Shown: positions 32,879 to 37,776 of the stretch, in pieces | How positions within the stretch are numbered: the stretch's first letter is position 1 | How the letters are laid out: each line of letters opens with the position of its first letter | Virus record (IMG/VR): IMGVR_UViG_3300045988_041082 | Source of the DNA: a virus | DNA length: 42,135 nucleotides | Direction: 5' to 3' (one strand) | The notes under the pieces: generated by a model | Databases searched by the model: none | What the model was told of the DNA's origin: nothing | Seen by the model: the letters and a program-made list of their open reading frames with translations, nothing else | Made by a program: the position numbers and the translations under genes

Positions 32879-33425
32879 AAGAACACTGATTGAATATCTC
32901 CCCCACATCATCAGGGATGTAAGAGAATACAAGGCAATTATGAATGATGCTGAACAGCCTGAAATGGTAGATGTTTGGCAAGCGGTTGATGATGCCTTGA
33001 ATGACCAATTCATTGTTGATGCAACTGAAAATGGTGTTTCCAGGTGGGAAAAAATCTTGGGGATTGTTCCACAAGCAACCCTTACTTTGGAAGAAAGAAA
33101 GTTTACCATTCTTACAAGAATCAATGAACAGCTTCCTTTCACTATAAGAACTTTGGAAGAATCCCTAAAATCTTTGTGTGGTGCTGAAGGGTATGTGGTT
33201 CAGCTTCAAGCAAATGAATATATCCTAATTGTAAAGGTTGCATTGGTAGCAAAGCACAATTTTGATGATGTTCAAAGACTGCTTGAAAGAATTGTTCCAG
33301 CTAACATGATTATTCAGCTTAGTATTATCTACAATACCCATGAAGTTCTTGGGGGCTATACCCATCAGGAACTTCACAGATATACACATTATGAATTAAG
33401 AAATGAGGTGCTAACACATGAGTAA
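32871..33425 (+). CDS. XkdU-like tail protein (DUF2313, tail protein I-like).
   Basis: LP..I.......AI...E.........VSRWEKILGI pattern. Confidence 0.65.
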   Translation: MYERTLIEYLPHIIRDVREYKAIMNDAEQPEMVDVWQAVDDALNDQFIVDATENGVSRWEKILGIVPQATLTLEERKFTILTRINEQLPFTIRTLEESLKSLCGAEGYVVQLQANEYILIVKVALVAKHNFDDVQRLLERIVPANMIIQLSIIYNTHEVLGGYTHQELHRYTHYELRNEVLTHE

Positions 33426-35676
33426 AACCCCAAATTACAATTTGAACAAACCCGCACAAACTGATTTTTATGATGTGGATGTTCAAAATGAAAACATGGA
33501 TAAGATTGATACAGCTTTAGCTAATAAAGTTGATAAGGTTGTTGGAAAAGGCTTATCCACAAATGATTACAATGCAACAGACAAAGGAAAAGTTGATAAT
33601 CTTCCTACTGATACTAACACTGAACTTGGTAAGAAAGTTAATAATCAGACCTTTGACAACCATAAGAATGATACTAACATTCATACCACTTCTGCTGAAA
33701 AAGAAAAGTGGAACAAGGGTGTTCAGAAGGTAACTGGTGCTACTACTGGAAATTTATCCGTTTTTGATTCTGAAGGTGGAATTGTTGATTCCAACAAAAA
33801 GCCTTCTGATTTCCTTGGTTCTGCACATGGAACTGCAACCATTATTGGTGAACCTGGGCTTCATGGAATCCGCTATTGGAATGAAAAGCTGGAAGTTCTT
33901 GTTGATGGTGCTTGGAAACAGGCAAGCAGCGGTGTTGGTATTGAAGTTGATGTAACTGTTCCAACTGGTTCTGTTGTTACTGCTACTGATGGTGAAAATG
34001 TGGTAACTGGAACAGCAGTAAACAATGCCCTTAAAGTGGCACTTCCTAACTATGGAAGCTGGGTATTTTCCGCAACCCTTGATGGTGAAACAAGTAATAC
34101 TGTTACCCTGAATTGTGATACTTCCAAGGTTTACAGTGTTACCCTTACTTATTTCACTGCAACAATCAAGGTAACTGCTAAAAGCGGTTCTGTTGTAACC
34201 ATTAAGAAGGGTTCTGTTGTTCAGACTGCTACAAGCACTGGAACTGCAACCTTCACTGTTAAGGAAGCTGGAACATATTCTGTTTATGCTACTTATGATG
34301 GTGTAAATTCCAACACTGTAATTGTAAATGCAACTACAAGCGGTGGAAGCTATACTGCAAGTGTTTCCTTTATTACCCTTACTGTTTCCATCAAAACTGG
34401 TTCAACTGTTGTTGTAACTAAGGGTTCTTATTCTTACAGTAAGGTAAGCACTGGAACAGCAGTGTTCTATTTGCCTGAAACTGGAACTTGGAGTGTAACA
34501 GCTTCGCTTTCAGGTGATACGGCAACTGGAACTATCAGTTGTTCTTCCTACACTGCTTATAGCATTACCCTGAATTACTTCAAAATCTTTGGTGTAAGCA
34601 TTGACCTTACCAATTCTGACCCCGCTTCAGCAGTTACTTACACTGATGATGCTGTTGGAATGACTGCTGGGGGTTCTGCTTGGGATTCTGAACCCATCTT
34701 CAAGGATATTAAGCCTTGCTTGCTTTTGAATGGTGTGGTTCAGAAATACCTTAACAAGAACAACTTTGCACAAGATGAAGATGGGAACAGTGCTGATATT
34801 ACAAGTGGTTCTGCTGGTGATGTAATGGTTGAAATTCCTAAGTGTGGTGTTAAAATTGCTACTTCAGGAAACACATTAACTATTAAGATTACAGATAATC
34901 CAAATGCTACTGCTGATGGCTTCCATTATTATGCACATACAAGGGCAACTGAAGGTGATTGTGATAAGCTTTATATTGGTGCTTATGTTGGTTACAGTTC
35001 CAGTAGTAAGCTTAGAAGTTTAAGCGGAAAATCCCCTACTGTTGATAAGACCATTGGGGCATTTAGAACATTGGCACAAGCTAATGGTGATGGATATGAC
35101 CAAATTTCCTTCTATCCTTTGACCTTGCTTCAGTGCTTGTTCCTTATCCGTTATAAGAACAGGAATTCCCAAACTGCACTTGGTAGGGGTTATGTTGATG
35201 GTTCTGCAAAAACTAACACTGGTGCAACCAATGCAAATGGTATGTACTATGGCAGCACTTCAGGAACAACCCATGTTAAGTTTGCTGGTATTGAAGATTT
35301 TTGGGGGAATATTTTCTATTTCATTGATGGTATTTACAGTGATTCCAGCAGAAATATTCTTACTGCTTTTGATAACTTCAACGATACTGGCAGCGGTTAC
35401 ACAAGTAGAGGACAGGGGGCAACTTCTAATATTGGTAACTATATGAGTAAGCCCCAAGGCACAACTGAAACAGGCTTTATTGCAAAAGAAGTTAATGGTT
35501 CTTCCACAACTCACTTCTGCGATTACGCTACTTTGAACGCTTCCCGCGTGGCTTATTTCGGTGGCTATTGGAATTATGGTGATGTTGCGGGTGCTTTTCG
35601 GCTTGGTGTGTATCTTTCGGCTTCGAGTTCGAGTTCGTATTATGGCGGTCGGCTGATGTATTTGAAGGCATCCTAA
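33418..35676 (+). CDS. Tail fibre / receptor-binding protein and DGR target. It has a conserved phage-fibre N-terminus, repeated beta-sandwich modules, and a C-terminal CLec-like domain that carries the variable repeat.
   Basis: MSKTPNYNLNKPAQTDFYDVDVQNENMDKID N-terminus; internal roughly 40-aa TGT/SGS-rich repeats. The last 149 nt before the stop are homologous to the downstream TR, with A-specific differences. Confidence 0.85.
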   Translation: MSKTPNYNLNKPAQTDFYDVDVQNENMDKIDTALANKVDKVVGKGLSTNDYNATDKGKVDNLPTDTNTELGKKVNNQTFDNHKNDTNIHTTSAEKEKWNKGVQKVTGATTGNLSVFDSEGGIVDSNKKPSDFLGSAHGTATIIGEPGLHGIRYWNEKLEVLVDGAWKQASSGVGIEVDVTVPTGSVVTATDGENVVTGTAVNNALKVALPNYGSWVFSATLDGETSNTVTLNCDTSKVYSVTLTYFTATIKVTAKSGSVVTIKKGSVVQTATSTGTATFTVKEAGTYSVYATYDGVNSNTVIVNATTSGGSYTASVSFITLTVSIKTGSTVVVTKGSYSYSKVSTGTAVFYLPETGTWSVTASLSGDTATGTISCSSYTAYSITLNYFKIFGVSIDLTNSDPASAVTYTDDAVGMTAGGSAWDSEPIFKDIKPCLLLNGVVQKYLNKNNFAQDEDGNSADITSGSAGDVMVEIPKCGVKIATSGNTLTIKITDNPNATADGFHYYAHTRATEGDCDKLYIGAYVGYSSSSKLRSLSGKSPTVDKTIGAFRTLAQANGDGYDQISFYPLTLLQCLFLIRYKNRNSQTALGRGYVDGSAKTNTGATNANGMYYGSTSGTTHVKFAGIEDFWGNIFYFIDGIYSDSSRNILTAFDNFNDTGSGYTSRGQGATSNIGNYMSKPQGTTETGFIAKEVNGSSTTHFCDYATLNASRVAYFGGYWNYGDVAGAFRLGVYLSASSSSSYYGGRLMYLKAS
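35517..35665 (+). repeat. DGR variable repeat (VR) at the 3' end of the tail-fibre gene.
   Basis: 149-bp gap-free alignment to 35722-35870 with a constant offset of 205 bp; 32 mismatches, 29 of them where the TR has A. Confidence 0.8.
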
Positions 35677-35721
35677 AGCACTAAATTAACAAATATTGGC
35701 AACTAAAGATTAGGAAAGTAC

Positions 35722-35870
35722 AAACGATAACACTAATTTGAACACTTCCCACTTGGCTAATTTCAGTGGCAATTGGAATAATGGTGATAATGCAGGTACT
35801 TTTCAGCTTAATGTGAATCATTCAGCTTCGAATTCGAATTCGAATTATGGCAGTCAGCAAATGTTTCTGA
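35722..35870 (+). repeat. DGR template repeat (TR), rich in A and AAY codons. The 61-aa ORF 35738..35923 is the TR, not a gene.
   Basis: See VR. The TR retains A at all 29 positions where the VR differs. Its 3' end diverges from the VR (IMH versus IMH*-like). Confidence 0.8.
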
Positions 35871-35872
35871 TT

Positions 35873-35900
35873 GATTGCCCCCGCCTTCCATTAGGGCGGG
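35873..35900 (+). other. GC-rich hairpin (GCCCCCGCC / GGCGGGGGC) immediately 3' of the TR, in the TR-RT spacer. Possibly a structural element of the DGR RNA.
   Basis: 9-bp GC inverted repeat with an 8-nt loop in otherwise AT-rich DNA. Confidence 0.45.
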
Positions 35901-36041
35901 GGCTTCAATATAAATTGCCTTAGTTGCCATGCCCCTTGGCAAAATATAAAAACCTTTTACACTGTATTAGTAGACCTTGCCCATTCGCAAGGGTTGAAAG
36001 TTCGGTATTAAAAAACATCAAAAGAAAGTTCAGGTGAAACA

Positions 36042-37106
36042 TTGAAAAGATACGGAAACATATATGAAAAAATCTATGATATGGAAAACCTGAAGGAAGC
36101 ACATAGAAACGCAAGGAAAGATAAGCTGTTTTATAAAGAAGTGAAAATGGTTGATTCAAACCCTGAATTTTATCTTACCCAAATTCAGCAGATGCTAAAG
36201 GATAAAACTTACAAGGTAAGCCCTTACACTGTTCAGAAGATATGGGATAAGGACAAAGAAAGGGAATTGATGAAGCTTCCTTACTTCCCTGATAGAATTA
36301 TTCAATGGGCGGTAATGATTCAGATTGAAGATGTATTTCATGAAGTGTTCACAGATTTCACTTGTGCATCCTTAAGGAATCGTGGAATCCATAAAGCTTC
36401 TAAACTGCTTACCAAGTACATGAAGGATGTACCAGGAACAACATACTGTTTGAAGATTGATGTTTCTAAATTTTATCCGAACATCAACCATTGTGTATTG
36501 AAGAAGCTTCTTAGAAAGAAATTCAAGGATGCAGATTTGCTTGAATTGTTGGATTTAATCATTGATAGCATCCCTGGTGAAGTAGGTGTTCCAATTGGTT
36601 CATACCTTTCACAATATCTTGCAAACTTTTATCTTTCCTACTTTGACCACTGGTTAAAAGAAGAAATGGGTGTTAAGTATGTAGTAAGATACATGGATGA
36701 TATTGTAATTCTTCATCATTCTAAGGAATTTCTGCATTGGCTGAAAGATAGAATGGATGAATACCTTCAGGGAAACTTGAAGCTGAAAATCAAAGATAAT
36801 TGGCAAGTGTTCCCCACTAATTCAAGGGGTGTTGATTTTGTTGGTTATCGTCATTTTTTCGGTTTTAAGCTTTTGAGAAAGAAAACTTATAAACGCTTCA
36901 GGAAGCGGATGCTTTCTATTGCAAGAAAGATAAGAAAAGGAACATCAATCAGTTATAAAGATTGGTGTTCCTTTAATTCTTACAAAGGTTGGTTAGATTG
37001 GTGTGATTCCTTCAGATTGAAAATGAAGTATGTTGTTCCAATTCAAGCTGCTATGGATGAATATTATCTTTCAAAAATTAAAAGAAAGGCGGTAATGCAA
37101 ACATGA
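36042..37106 (+). CDS. Diversity-generating retroelement reverse transcriptase (Brt-like).
   Basis: N-terminus MKRYGNIYEKIYDMENLKEA parallels BPP-1 Brt; RT motifs PYFPDRIIQWAV, SKFYPNINH, the DGR-specific VGVPIGSYLSQYLANFYL (IGxxxSQ), RYMDDIVIL and NSRGVDFVGYRHF. No maturase or endonuclease domain. TTG start with SD AGGTGA. Confidence 0.9.
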   Translation: MKRYGNIYEKIYDMENLKEAHRNARKDKLFYKEVKMVDSNPEFYLTQIQQMLKDKTYKVSPYTVQKIWDKDKERELMKLPYFPDRIIQWAVMIQIEDVFHEVFTDFTCASLRNRGIHKASKLLTKYMKDVPGTTYCLKIDVSKFYPNINHCVLKKLLRKKFKDADLLELLDLIIDSIPGEVGVPIGSYLSQYLANFYLSYFDHWLKEEMGVKYVVRYMDDIVILHHSKEFLHWLKDRMDEYLQGNLKLKIKDNWQVFPTNSRGVDFVGYRHFFGFKLLRKKTYKRFRKRMLSIARKIRKGTSISYKDWCSFNSYKGWLDWCDSFRLKMKYVVPIQAAMDEYYLSKIKRKAVMQT

Positions 37107-37348
37107 AAGATGTTGGTTATGTAACTGGCAGTGCTGCACAAGCACAAGAATTGGTTATTGGAACTGATGTGGTGTATGTTCATTCTGAAATTACATTGGT
37201 TGAACCTAAAGAGGGTGAAGAAAGACCTTCCCCAATTTACCGTTACCATGAAATTCAGTATGAAAAGAATGAATACATCAAACTGATGGCTGAACAGAAT
37301 AAGGAACTTTCAAACCTTATGAATACTATGTTGGGGGTGAATGAATAA
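37103..37348 (+). CDS. Hypothetical protein (81 aa), in the XkdW/XkdX position.
   Basis: ORF with an ATGA overlap onto the RT stop. Confidence 0.45.
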   Translation: MKDVGYVTGSAAQAQELVIGTDVVYVHSEITLVEPKEGEERPSPIYRYHEIQYEKNEYIKLMAEQNKELSNLMNTMLGVNE

Positions 37349-37776
37349 TGGCAGATAAAGAACTTGTTGCAAAGCAGATGAACAGATTTTTTCAAATTAT
37401 GGCACAGCAAATGAACCTTGATGATGAAACTGCAATGGAAATTGCTGATTTGTATGAACCTTGGGAAGTTGGTAAATCTTATGCTGTTGGAAAAATTGTA
37501 AAGTATGGAACTAATGCTGATGGTGAAACACAGCTTTATTCTGTACTTCAAGCACACACTTCACAATTTGATTGGCTTCCTGACCTTACCCCTTCGCTTT
37601 ATAAAAAAGTTGGATTTGATGATTCAGGCATTCCAATTTGGACACAGCCCCTTGGTGCATCAGATGCTTATGCTAAAGGTGATGTTGTAACCCATAACAA
37701 CAAAACCTGGGTAAGTGATGTTGATGCTAATGTATGGGAACCTGGTGTTTATGGTTGGACTGAACAAGCATCTTAA
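37348..37776 (+). CDS. Hypothetical protein (142 aa), in the post-fibre position.
   Basis: SD GGGGGTGA before ATG 37348. Confidence 0.45.
   Translation: MADKELVAKQMNRFFQIMAQQMNLDDETAMEIADLYEPWEVGKSYAVGKIVKYGTNADGETQLYSVLQAHTSQFDWLPDLTPSLYKKVGFDDSGIPIWTQPLGASDAYAKGDVVTHNNKTWVSDVDANVWEPGVYGWTEQAS

Follow-up and report, generated by a model that had tools for sequence, protein, structure and literature searches.

A structured TR-RT spacer RNA in a putatively Avd-independent DGR of a Clostridia-type prophage

We describe a compact DGR from a phage genome, and focus on the spacer between its TR and its reverse transcriptase (RT) gene. The spacer occupies positions 35871-36041 of the window, which is the whole 42-kb stretch of DNA that was analysed; all features described below lie on its plus strand. 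Our preferred reading, to which we give a probability of roughly 0.6, is that this is the spacer of a minimal, Avd-independent DGR, that it takes part in a four-part structured RNA, and that a conspicuous GC-rich hairpin within it is a dispensable insertion. The anatomy of the cassette, the covariation of the RNA pairings, the absence of Avd and the position at which the A-type differences between TR and VR end are direct observations; from the sequences we infer the priming chemistry, the binding of the RT and the role of the hairpin. The value of the locus is in its RNA anatomy. Mechanistic work on DGR RNA has all come from one element, which is Avd-dependent.

The cassette, its relatives and the search for Avd

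The window is a prophage, with genes for terminase, capsid, sheath and tube, baseplate proteins, a tail fibre, a lysis module and an integrase. The phage is a myovirus-like prophage of Clostridia type, and the DGR is located at the right end of the window. The target gene (33418-35676) encodes a 752-aa tail fibre or receptor-binding protein that matches PHROG 5302 ('tail protein') at 1e-69 and hosts the VR at its C-terminus. The VR (35520-35665) covers the final ~50 codons of this gene, whose stop codon lies at 35674-35676. At this end DGR targets encode a ligand-binding domain with a C-type-lectin fold, for which the C-terminus of the fibre would be a candidate. Comparison of the repeats places the TR at 35725-35870, with 80% identity to the VR at an offset of 205 nt. 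The A-type differences extend up to 35860. Between 35725 and 35860 of the TR, 26 of the 27 mismatches with the VR fall at TR adenines, and 26 of the 42 As differ, i.e. the TR/VR differences are confined to TR adenines in the manner that identifies a DGR.

The second hallmark of a DGR is an RT of the appropriate type next to the TR. Here the RT gene (36042-37106; 354 aa) begins 171 nt after the TR end, with a TTG start and an AGGTGA Shine-Dalgarno sequence upstream. The protein matches RVT_1 at 5e-19 and PHROG 1423 at 5e-121, and it carries the motifs IGSYLSQ and YMDD. The pattern [I/L/V]GxxxSQ in RT motif 4 is specific to DGRs.

Target gene (VR), TR and RT follow one another on a single strand and no accessory gene is present, which is the order of Architecture A1. 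This Avd-less layout is an already described class. Wu et al. 2018 (PMC5758913) surveyed DGRs and found 26% of them to be without avd, as is lineage 3; 29% belong to Architecture A (TG-TR-RT). A good example is the DGR of crAssphage LMMB, a lineage 3 element organized as TG-VR(IMH)-TR(IMH*)-RT with no avd. Our cassette shares with the Architecture A1/lineage 3 DGRs (LMMB) the gene order, the lack of an avd, HRDC, MSL or CH1 gene, and a phage tail-fibre protein with a C-terminal VR as the target. The RT is 37% identical to that of LMMB and 44-47% identical to the RTs of other crAss-like phages, which hints, indirectly, at a possible membership of lineage 3. The clade of the window differs from LMMB-type DGRs in its distribution, as it is found in prophages of Clostridia/Bacillota and not in Bacteroides or crAss-like phages. 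The RNA architecture that we report is also absent from the descriptions of Architecture A1.

Has an Avd been overlooked? A profile search of the 10 ORFs around the RT, from the VR to the endolysin, gave no Avd-family match at E<=1. No Avd was among the matches listed when 147 ORFs of 55-230 aa from both strands were compared with Pfam and NCBIfam, a scan of the whole window in which matches weaker than about 1e-3 would escape the families listed. Likewise, a phmmer query with the BPP-1 Avd found no match in the six-frame translation of the window, and no bAvd match was found among 138 small ORFs from 28 related loci. As a positive control, the BPP-1 Avd matches Pfam PF22296 (bAvd) at 7e-36, so the test works. 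The cassette thus lacks the avd gene that belongs to the BPP-1 type (Architecture B), with no match to bAvd or PF05635 in the window and its relatives. Among more distant relatives, the basic ORFs of ~99 aa located 3' of the RT have no match in Pfam. These searches, which were carried out on ORFs of both strands of the window and on 28 relatives, bear out the first-pass annotation, which had claimed that no Avd-like ORF exists between the VR and the RT or just after the RT.

The spacing of the repeats is also informative. The distance from the end of the VR homology to the TR start is about 57-59 nt, in agreement with an earlier value of 57 nt, and no ORF is contained in this gap. We compared the cassette with 79 viral and 20 genomic relatives. 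In about 60 related loci the TR follows the VR, on the same strand, at a distance of 49-180 nt, and the VR/TR mismatches are nearly all at TR-A. A comparison with other DGRs had been suggested beforehand, and its outcome is that the tight VR-TR spacing of the related loci leaves no space for avd. The closest genomes are those of Clostridia (Evtepia, Christensenella, Ihubacter), with an RT identity of at most 71%. The related avd-less elements look active, judging by their repeats: in the close relative L001, for example, the TR end is identical to that of the window and the VR differs from the window's at A-sites. Given an Avd-less cassette, and relatives that have the adenine-specific pattern, Avd-independent operation is the best reading, and a well supported one. 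The suggestion of 'an Avd-independent or trans-complemented DGR' that departs from the paradigm is upheld for its first part, Avd independence; as a departure it is less novel than proposed, since the layout has already been catalogued.

An alternative is that another protein has taken the place of Avd. The start of ORF81 (37103-37348), which encodes an acidic 81-aa protein with a pI of 4.7, overlaps the RT stop (ATGA), and it could be argued that this translationally coupled gene is a new accessory. ORF81 homologues follow the RT in most relatives. They are found directly after it down to 48% RT identity, and the next phage genes are kept only in the closest relatives. An unbiased survey with ORF81's own motif returned 78 loci, 67 of which have an RT immediately upstream. 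However, in 10 ORF81 loci that lack an RT or TR the gene directly follows a homologue of the target C-terminal region, and in 3 loci it is found beside decayed RT remnants only. The RT-less loci imply that ORF81 belongs with the fibre gene and that the TR-RT cassette was inserted between them. The protein itself matches PHROG 18126, a family of unknown function, and its AF2 model (pLDDT 82) shows three strands and one long helix, with no PDB match by sequence or fold. This acidic beta-plus-helix protein contrasts with the basic, four-helix Avd. The candidacy of ORF81 as a divergent Avd or a new accessory was rejected on its fold, its charge and the RT-less loci; we judge that its genetic link is probably with the fibre gene and not with the RT, and consider an accessory role improbable. 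The ORF that follows (37348-37776) has a pI of 4.3, and neither it nor ORF81 has an Avd match, in keeping with their initial description as acidic and not Avd-like.

Modules of the spacer RNA

Most of the spacer is accounted for by a known RNA family. The Rfam model RT-17 (RF03020) matches 35925-36025 with 63 bits, compared with a gathering score of 40.4; the match spans model positions 1-95 of 95 and stops 16 nt short of the RT gene. RT-17 or RT-18 (RF03021) is found at the equivalent position between TR and RT in 12 of 18 relatives. The match contains four short helices: P1 (35930-33 with 35938-41), which is closed by a CCUU tetraloop and followed by an A-run at 35942-45, P2 (35961-64 with 36003-06), P2' (35966-68 with 35999-36001) and P3 (35975-80 with 35987-92). 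RNAalifold predicts 13 pairs from 38 relatives, 10 of them with compensatory changes, and P1, P2 and P3 are supported. A promoter-like sequence, TTGGCA-N16-TACACT (35936-35963), overlaps the conserved P1 strand; matches of this kind are at chance level (16 found, 18.8 expected), and it was set aside.

Beyond the RT-17 and RT-18 models, the flanks of the element pair with outside sequences, and so add two longer-range pairings. The first of these we call the clamp. Its 5' arm, UGGCAACUAA (35697-35706), is located in the VR-TR gap and is complementary at 10 of 10 positions to the 3' arm, UUAGUUGCCA (35920-35929), which abuts P1. In 36 relatives the mean Watson-Crick run between cognate arms is 8.19, compared with 5.39 +/- 0.20 when partners are permuted (p<5e-5). 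None of 20,000 permutations reached the observed value, and many different sequences contribute to it.

The second pairing joins the TR 3' end to the tail of the spacer. The strand X, AUGUUU (35861-35866), pairs with X', AAACAU (36013-36018), forming a proposed template:primer duplex with a candidate priming site in X'. The duplex is just 6 bp in the window, and it is the covariation among relatives that makes the case: the mean run is 6.46, compared with 4.85 +/- 0.18 for permuted partners (p<5e-5), where this test and that of the clamp rest on about 35 relatives. There are at least 10 covarying sequence classes, e.g. CUUUGUGAU/AUCACAAAG, GCUUAUU/AAUAAGC, UUGUCUG/CAGACAA and UUUAAUCUU/AAGAUUAAA. 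These results were obtained from ungapped Watson-Crick runs with permutation, which replaced an unconstrained RNAduplex comparison of TR ends with tails; the latter allows large loops and did not separate cognate from non-cognate partners (-16.5 versus -15.8 kcal/mol).

The boundary of the A-type differences coincides with this duplex. In 34 DGRs, the TR-A differences from the VR end exactly at the 5' edge of X:X'. At position -1, 26 of 28 As differ from the VR, and at position 0 none of 15 do. Differences at bases other than A start at +2 in these DGRs and at 35865 in the window. The differences closest to the duplex have a character of their own: over the 13 nt next to X, ~96% of the TR-As have a different base in the VR, and the replacement is invariably the same one (CAC to CGC, NAA to NTG). 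Farther upstream about 57% differ, close to the ~50% density reported for active DGRs. Fixed differences of the IMH/IMH* type may fit this proximal pattern better than random mutagenesis does. In that case the effective boundary of transfer might be ~13 nt farther upstream than the start that we propose.

How might these modules work together? We propose that the spacer would fold together with the stretch that immediately precedes the TR into a single structured RNA. The 10-bp clamp duplex (35697-706/35920-29) would hold the TR and mark the far end of the template. It would run directly into the 4-bp NCUU-tetraloop hairpin P1 and then AAAA, followed by a single strand and the long interrupted stem-loop P2/P3, which together with the P1 module constitutes RT-17. 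The tail (36013-18) would fold back on the TR 3' end (35861-66), and cDNA synthesis could then start in cis from a tail nucleotide, with 35860 as the adjacent template base. By analogy with BPP-1, the clamp/P1 element may halt cDNA synthesis, which is the role of the cPRT Stop.

The BPP-1 RNA offers a convenient standard for comparison (Handa et al. 2018; Handa et al. 2024 preprint). In that RNA the 2'-OH of Sp A56 primes on TR G117 beside a 7-bp TR:Sp duplex, and an avd:Sp duplex, a short UNCG stem-loop and A80/A81 constitute the cPRT Stop, which leads into a single-stranded 'thumb ring' and then an interrupted stem-loop bound by the RT. Avd binds an 11-bp stem-loop, Sp 3-33, that directly follows the TR. 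The window has a counterpart for each of these modules. It has a duplex between TR 3' end and spacer next to the first templated base, and this duplex covaries. The cPRT Stop is paralleled by a duplex of upstream-of-TR sequence with the spacer, a short tetraloop stem-loop and unpaired adenosines, with the clamp 5' arm corresponding to the avd-side strand. Both RNAs also have a long interrupted stem-loop downstream of the stop module and a further stem-loop that directly follows the TR. This match of modules argues for Avd-independent cis-priming, and it would mean that an Avd-less clade retains the TR clamp, the stop module and the TR-end priming duplex.

There are differences as well. No Avd is found in the window, and the stem-loop after the TR is optional in the clade. 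The primer strand of the window is at the spacer 3' end, after the interrupted stem-loop, whereas that of BPP-1 is 2 nt before the stop-duplex arm, so that the TR-end pairing of the window would cross the clamp in a pseudoknot topology. The BPP-1 order was also considered for our clade, in the form of a primer strand just 5' of the clamp 3' arm paired with the TR GGC region, and was rejected as a clade-wide feature (p = 0.17; restricted, p = 0.10). This pairing reaches 4-5 bp in a subset (the window, L005, L009, L010, L029, L045 and L081) and may hold for a sub-clade. Finally, the first template base of the window is an A, where BPP-1 has a G in a GC-rich block. An IMH/IMH* pair consists of imperfect repeats 3' of the mutagenised zone and usually opens with a GC-rich block. 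The window has neither the 14-bp GC-only IMH nor the inverted repeat after the VR, and fixed A-versus-G/T differences are found at 35852-35860.

Retron msr-msd RNAs provide a more remote analogy. Their inverted repeats place an internal nucleotide beside the start of the template, where its 2'-OH primes in cis, much as we envisage for the window. Retrons differ in belonging to another RT clade; the cassette has no msr/msd organization, and what it copies, with adenine-specific errors, is a protein-coding repeat.

These results are of some importance for RNA annotation. When the RT-associated motifs were published, RT-10 alone was linked to a DGR (BPP-1), and the links of the others were speculative (Weinberg et al. 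2017). The window matches RT-17 from end to end just upstream of its RT gene, the placement described for the family, and the orphan families RT-17 and RT-18 can now be assigned a probable role in DGRs. A comparative survey of DGR RNA elements was limited to Avd-containing DGRs (Handa preprint), and our literature search found no description of RNA elements in Avd-less DGRs. The region offers a compact system of an RT and an RNA of ~350 nt that should work without a second protein, an appealing property for reconstitution and for the engineering of targeted mutagenesis.

The GC hairpin after the TR

The linker that joins the TR end to the clamp 3' arm contains a GC hairpin (35877-35903). As RNA it consists of an 11-bp stem (35877-87/35893-903) with a 5-nt loop, and an outer helix of 5 bp (35870-74/35905-09). 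The stem is built on a perfect GC inverted repeat, GCCCCCGCC/GGCGGGGGC, at 35877-35885 and 35895-35903. As DNA it folds with -15.8 kcal/mol (z = -4.4), and it is the sole perfect 9-bp stem with at least 7 GC pairs in a window of 37% GC; no such stem was found in 200 shuffles. The first-pass annotation had described it as the only GC-rich inverted repeat, placed directly after the TR at 35873-35900. Its uniqueness and its position after the TR are correct, and the coordinates are 3-4 nt off.

The same annotation stated that nothing comparable follows the VR. We looked for such a hairpin and none folds: the region 35640-35735 after the VR is unstructured (-2.9 kcal/mol, z = +1.25). The GC inverted repeat downstream of the VR/IMH that belongs to Architecture B is consequently missing from the window. 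That said, DGRs without a hairpin after the VR have also been catalogued; in the survey of Wu et al. (2018, PMC5758913), no more than 34% of the elements had a GC inverted repeat after the IMH.

Relatives of the window show how variable this element is. We surveyed 41 non-redundant relatives and counted hairpins of at most -10 kcal/mol as strong. A linker hairpin between TR and spacer is present in 13 of the 41, a hairpin lies after the VR instead in 6, both positions are occupied in 2, and at least 20 have none. Hairpin stems are unrelated in sequence between sub-lineages, with no conserved loop or bulged bases evident, and relatives with ~70% identical RTs (L004-L013, L019) lack the linker hairpin. 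Within the window's own lineage the flanks of the hairpin are invariant and the stem varies with compensation. Two C-G pairs are exchanged for A-U in L003, one exchange is accompanied by a mismatch in L182, and a bulge is found in L001. A pattern scan of metagenomes for hairpin variants found 7 loci, 2 of which are the same element and carry one identical variant.

With a linker hairpin in 13 of 41 relatives, one after the VR in 6 and none in at least 20, the hairpin is best regarded as a dispensable insertion and not as a recognition cue. In our interpretation of these comparisons it is a lineage-specific insertion with a structure that is under selection. What might it do? Several relatives have linker hairpins with a tail of U (UUUU), resembling terminators. 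The stem in the window would qualify as that of an intrinsic terminator, but its tail, CUUCAAUAU, has 4 U in 8 nt, and a terminator was not called. The fibre-linked ORF81 lies downstream, which makes efficient termination at the hairpin unlikely and a strong terminator costly. Most likely it works as RNA, either attenuating transcription in the manner of a weak terminator or stabilising the 3' end or the folding of the fibre-TR transcript. An attenuator, a stabiliser or an optional grapple are all possible; a conserved target-recognition cue is not.

The last of these had been the original proposal, namely that the placement of the hairpin implies target-recognition cues different from those of the paradigm. 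It does not survive the survey, in which the hairpin is missing from at least 20 of 41 relatives and changes position. It also started from an outdated premise, a paradigm with no hairpin after the TR, as Sp 3-33 of BPP-1 is a stem-loop directly 3' of the TR. In its specific form, the proposal would have the hairpin extrude as a DNA cruciform that marks the recipient or the donor. A GC-rich inverted repeat 3' of the VR does promote homing in BPP-1, and the repeat in the window folds well as DNA too. However, it follows the donor (TR) and not the recipient, and a recipient mark in this place would steer mutagenesis into the TR. The variable position, the absence from most relatives and the fact that just 34% of all DGRs have such a repeat also speak against this explanation, which we regard as highly improbable.

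If the hairpin is the true counterpart of the BPP-1 stem-loop, an Avd supplied in trans from the host chromosome or another prophage might bind it. The topology is suggestive: the 11-bp stem starts 11 nt after the strand of the TR end, which is the position of Sp 3-33, and a stem-loop of this kind is found in 207 of 278 Avd-containing DGRs (Handa preprint). Yet relatives that have no hairpin show the same A-mutagenesis signature, others carry it after the VR, and no Avd was found in either the window or the 28 related phage loci. For avd-less DGRs, the profile searches of Wu et al. (PMC5758913) did not turn up an avd in other parts of the genomes. Reliance on a host Avd would, moreover, cost a temperate phage its tropism switching at each change of host. 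We consider trans-complementation quite improbable.

A somewhat better case can be made for the hairpin as an element of the RNP, i.e. a grapple that would engage the RT itself or an RNA-binding protein of the host and be needed for processive reverse transcription in the lineages that carry it. It occupies the position of the Avd grapple of BPP-1, its pairing is kept by compensatory changes between invariant flanks, and several sub-lineages have non-homologous hairpins at this very point of the linker. An essential contact is difficult to reconcile with its absence beside RTs that are ~70% identical, and with stems that share neither sequence nor evident loop or bulge features between lineages. 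A grapple of this type is unlikely in our view, and the preferred reading of the hairpin is still that of a dispensable insertion.

Complementarity of the spacer tail to the VR

How a DGR finds its target is the least understood step of retrohoming, and the tail of the spacer provides a testable idea on this. Tentatively, the spacer RNA of the Avd-less RT-17/RT-18 clade might have two functions, priming cDNA synthesis and reading the target by base-pairing; we see this as a possibility worth raising rather than as an expectation. The RNA, or the 5' end of an RNA-linked cDNA, would select the 3' homing junction through pairing with the VR end. If true, tail-VR pairing would replace the GC-rich IMH, the DNA cruciform and the Avd of the BPP-1 paradigm, and would explain the fixed A-versus-G/T differences between the ends of TR and VR.

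The comparative data concern the 2-3 tail nucleotides 3' of the primer strand. With these the VR forms 74 of 102 possible pairs, compared with 33 +/- 5 for permuted loci, and the TR forms 22. At position -1 the tail pairs with the VR in 28 of 34 loci and with the TR in none of the 34. The TR always has a non-complementary base, usually A, at the tail-pairing positions that flank the start.

The window conforms to this pattern. In the 3' extension of X' (CAA, 36019-36021) the complementarity is to the VR, not the TR. The VR sequence TGATGT (35654-35659), which includes two positions with As in the TR, is complementary to ACAUCA in the tail (36015-36020), and over the longer stretch of 35654-35666 against 36008-36020 the two are complementary at 11 of 13 positions.

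Sequence variation at the TR end

A comparison of 34 related DGRs shows that differences between adenines of the TR and the VR fall into two regimes. Of the TR adenines that lie no more than 13 nt from the TR-end duplex, the proposed pairing of the TR 3′ end (35861-35866) with the spacer tail (36013-36018), about 96% differ from the VR, always to the same base; the corresponding zone in the window is 35848-35860, against VR 35643-35655. These proximal differences are located in conserved G-x-R-L-M codons. Further upstream the proportion that differs is about 57%. This suggests that either the proximal zone is not transferred, or that selection is very strong there.

The tail that lies just 3′ of the proposed primer strand (36019-36021) shows complementarity to the flank of the start site as it reads in the VR (35653-35655), and not as it reads in the TR. 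This complementarity covaries between sequence classes, with 74 of 102 pairs matching, compared with 33 ± 5 when permuted.

The spacer RNA and the clamp around the TR

The TR-RT spacer of the window hosts the Rfam family RT-17. Among less closely related DGRs of this clade the spacer is filled by a related family, RT-18 (RF03021; L062:3917-3995 and L067:3920-3994), therefore RT-17 and RT-18 look like variants of a single DGR spacer RNA. The RT-18 model gives a match in the window as well, at a sub-threshold 31 bits.

Just 5′ of P1, the tetraloop hairpin that adjoins the 3′ arm of the clamp, are tandem copies of UUGCC (35915-35919 and 35924-35928). Since either copy can pair with GGCAA (35698-35702) in the 5′ arm of the clamp, this duplex could adopt an alternative register. 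Several relatives also carry (U)GCC-like motifs ahead of the clamp arm.

Small genes downstream of the RT

In six more distant, Bacteroidota-type relatives the RT stop is overlapped by an ORF of approximately 96-101 aa (L046:4947-5243, L051:2450-2746, L054:4950-5243, L061:4947-5249, L066:5022-5318 and L047:5056-5343). These ORFs share the motifs FTGS and PF.TTI and look beta-rich from their sequences. Five of the six are basic, with pI 8.5-9.7, and the one in L047 is close to neutral at pI 6.6; a Pfam search with them returned no match. They may represent an undescribed accessory gene that is coupled to the RT in Avd-less DGRs.

In the window this position is occupied by ORF81 (37103-37348), a member of a conserved family of acidic, 77-92 aa proteins (PHROG 18126; e.g. 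L109:3001-3252) with the motif DTVYVH...YxYHExQYxKDEYI. The family is always found immediately 3′ of this type of fibre gene, or of an RT inserted behind that gene. The structure model of ORF81 predicts a beta-plus-helix fold, for which no structural relatives were found. ORF81 is probably an assembly or accessory protein of the fibre.

The acidic 142-aa ORF that follows (37348-37776) carries a carbohydrate-binding domain (CBM_5_12, 8e-13). Only the closest relatives conserve it, and its product, probably a tail or lysis-associated phage protein, would have no connection with the DGR.

Three phage contigs have kept the fibre gene and ORF81 while the RT is reduced to fragments (residues 315-354 only in L117 and L120, residues 2-84 only in L151); these are examples of DGR decay within this phage group.
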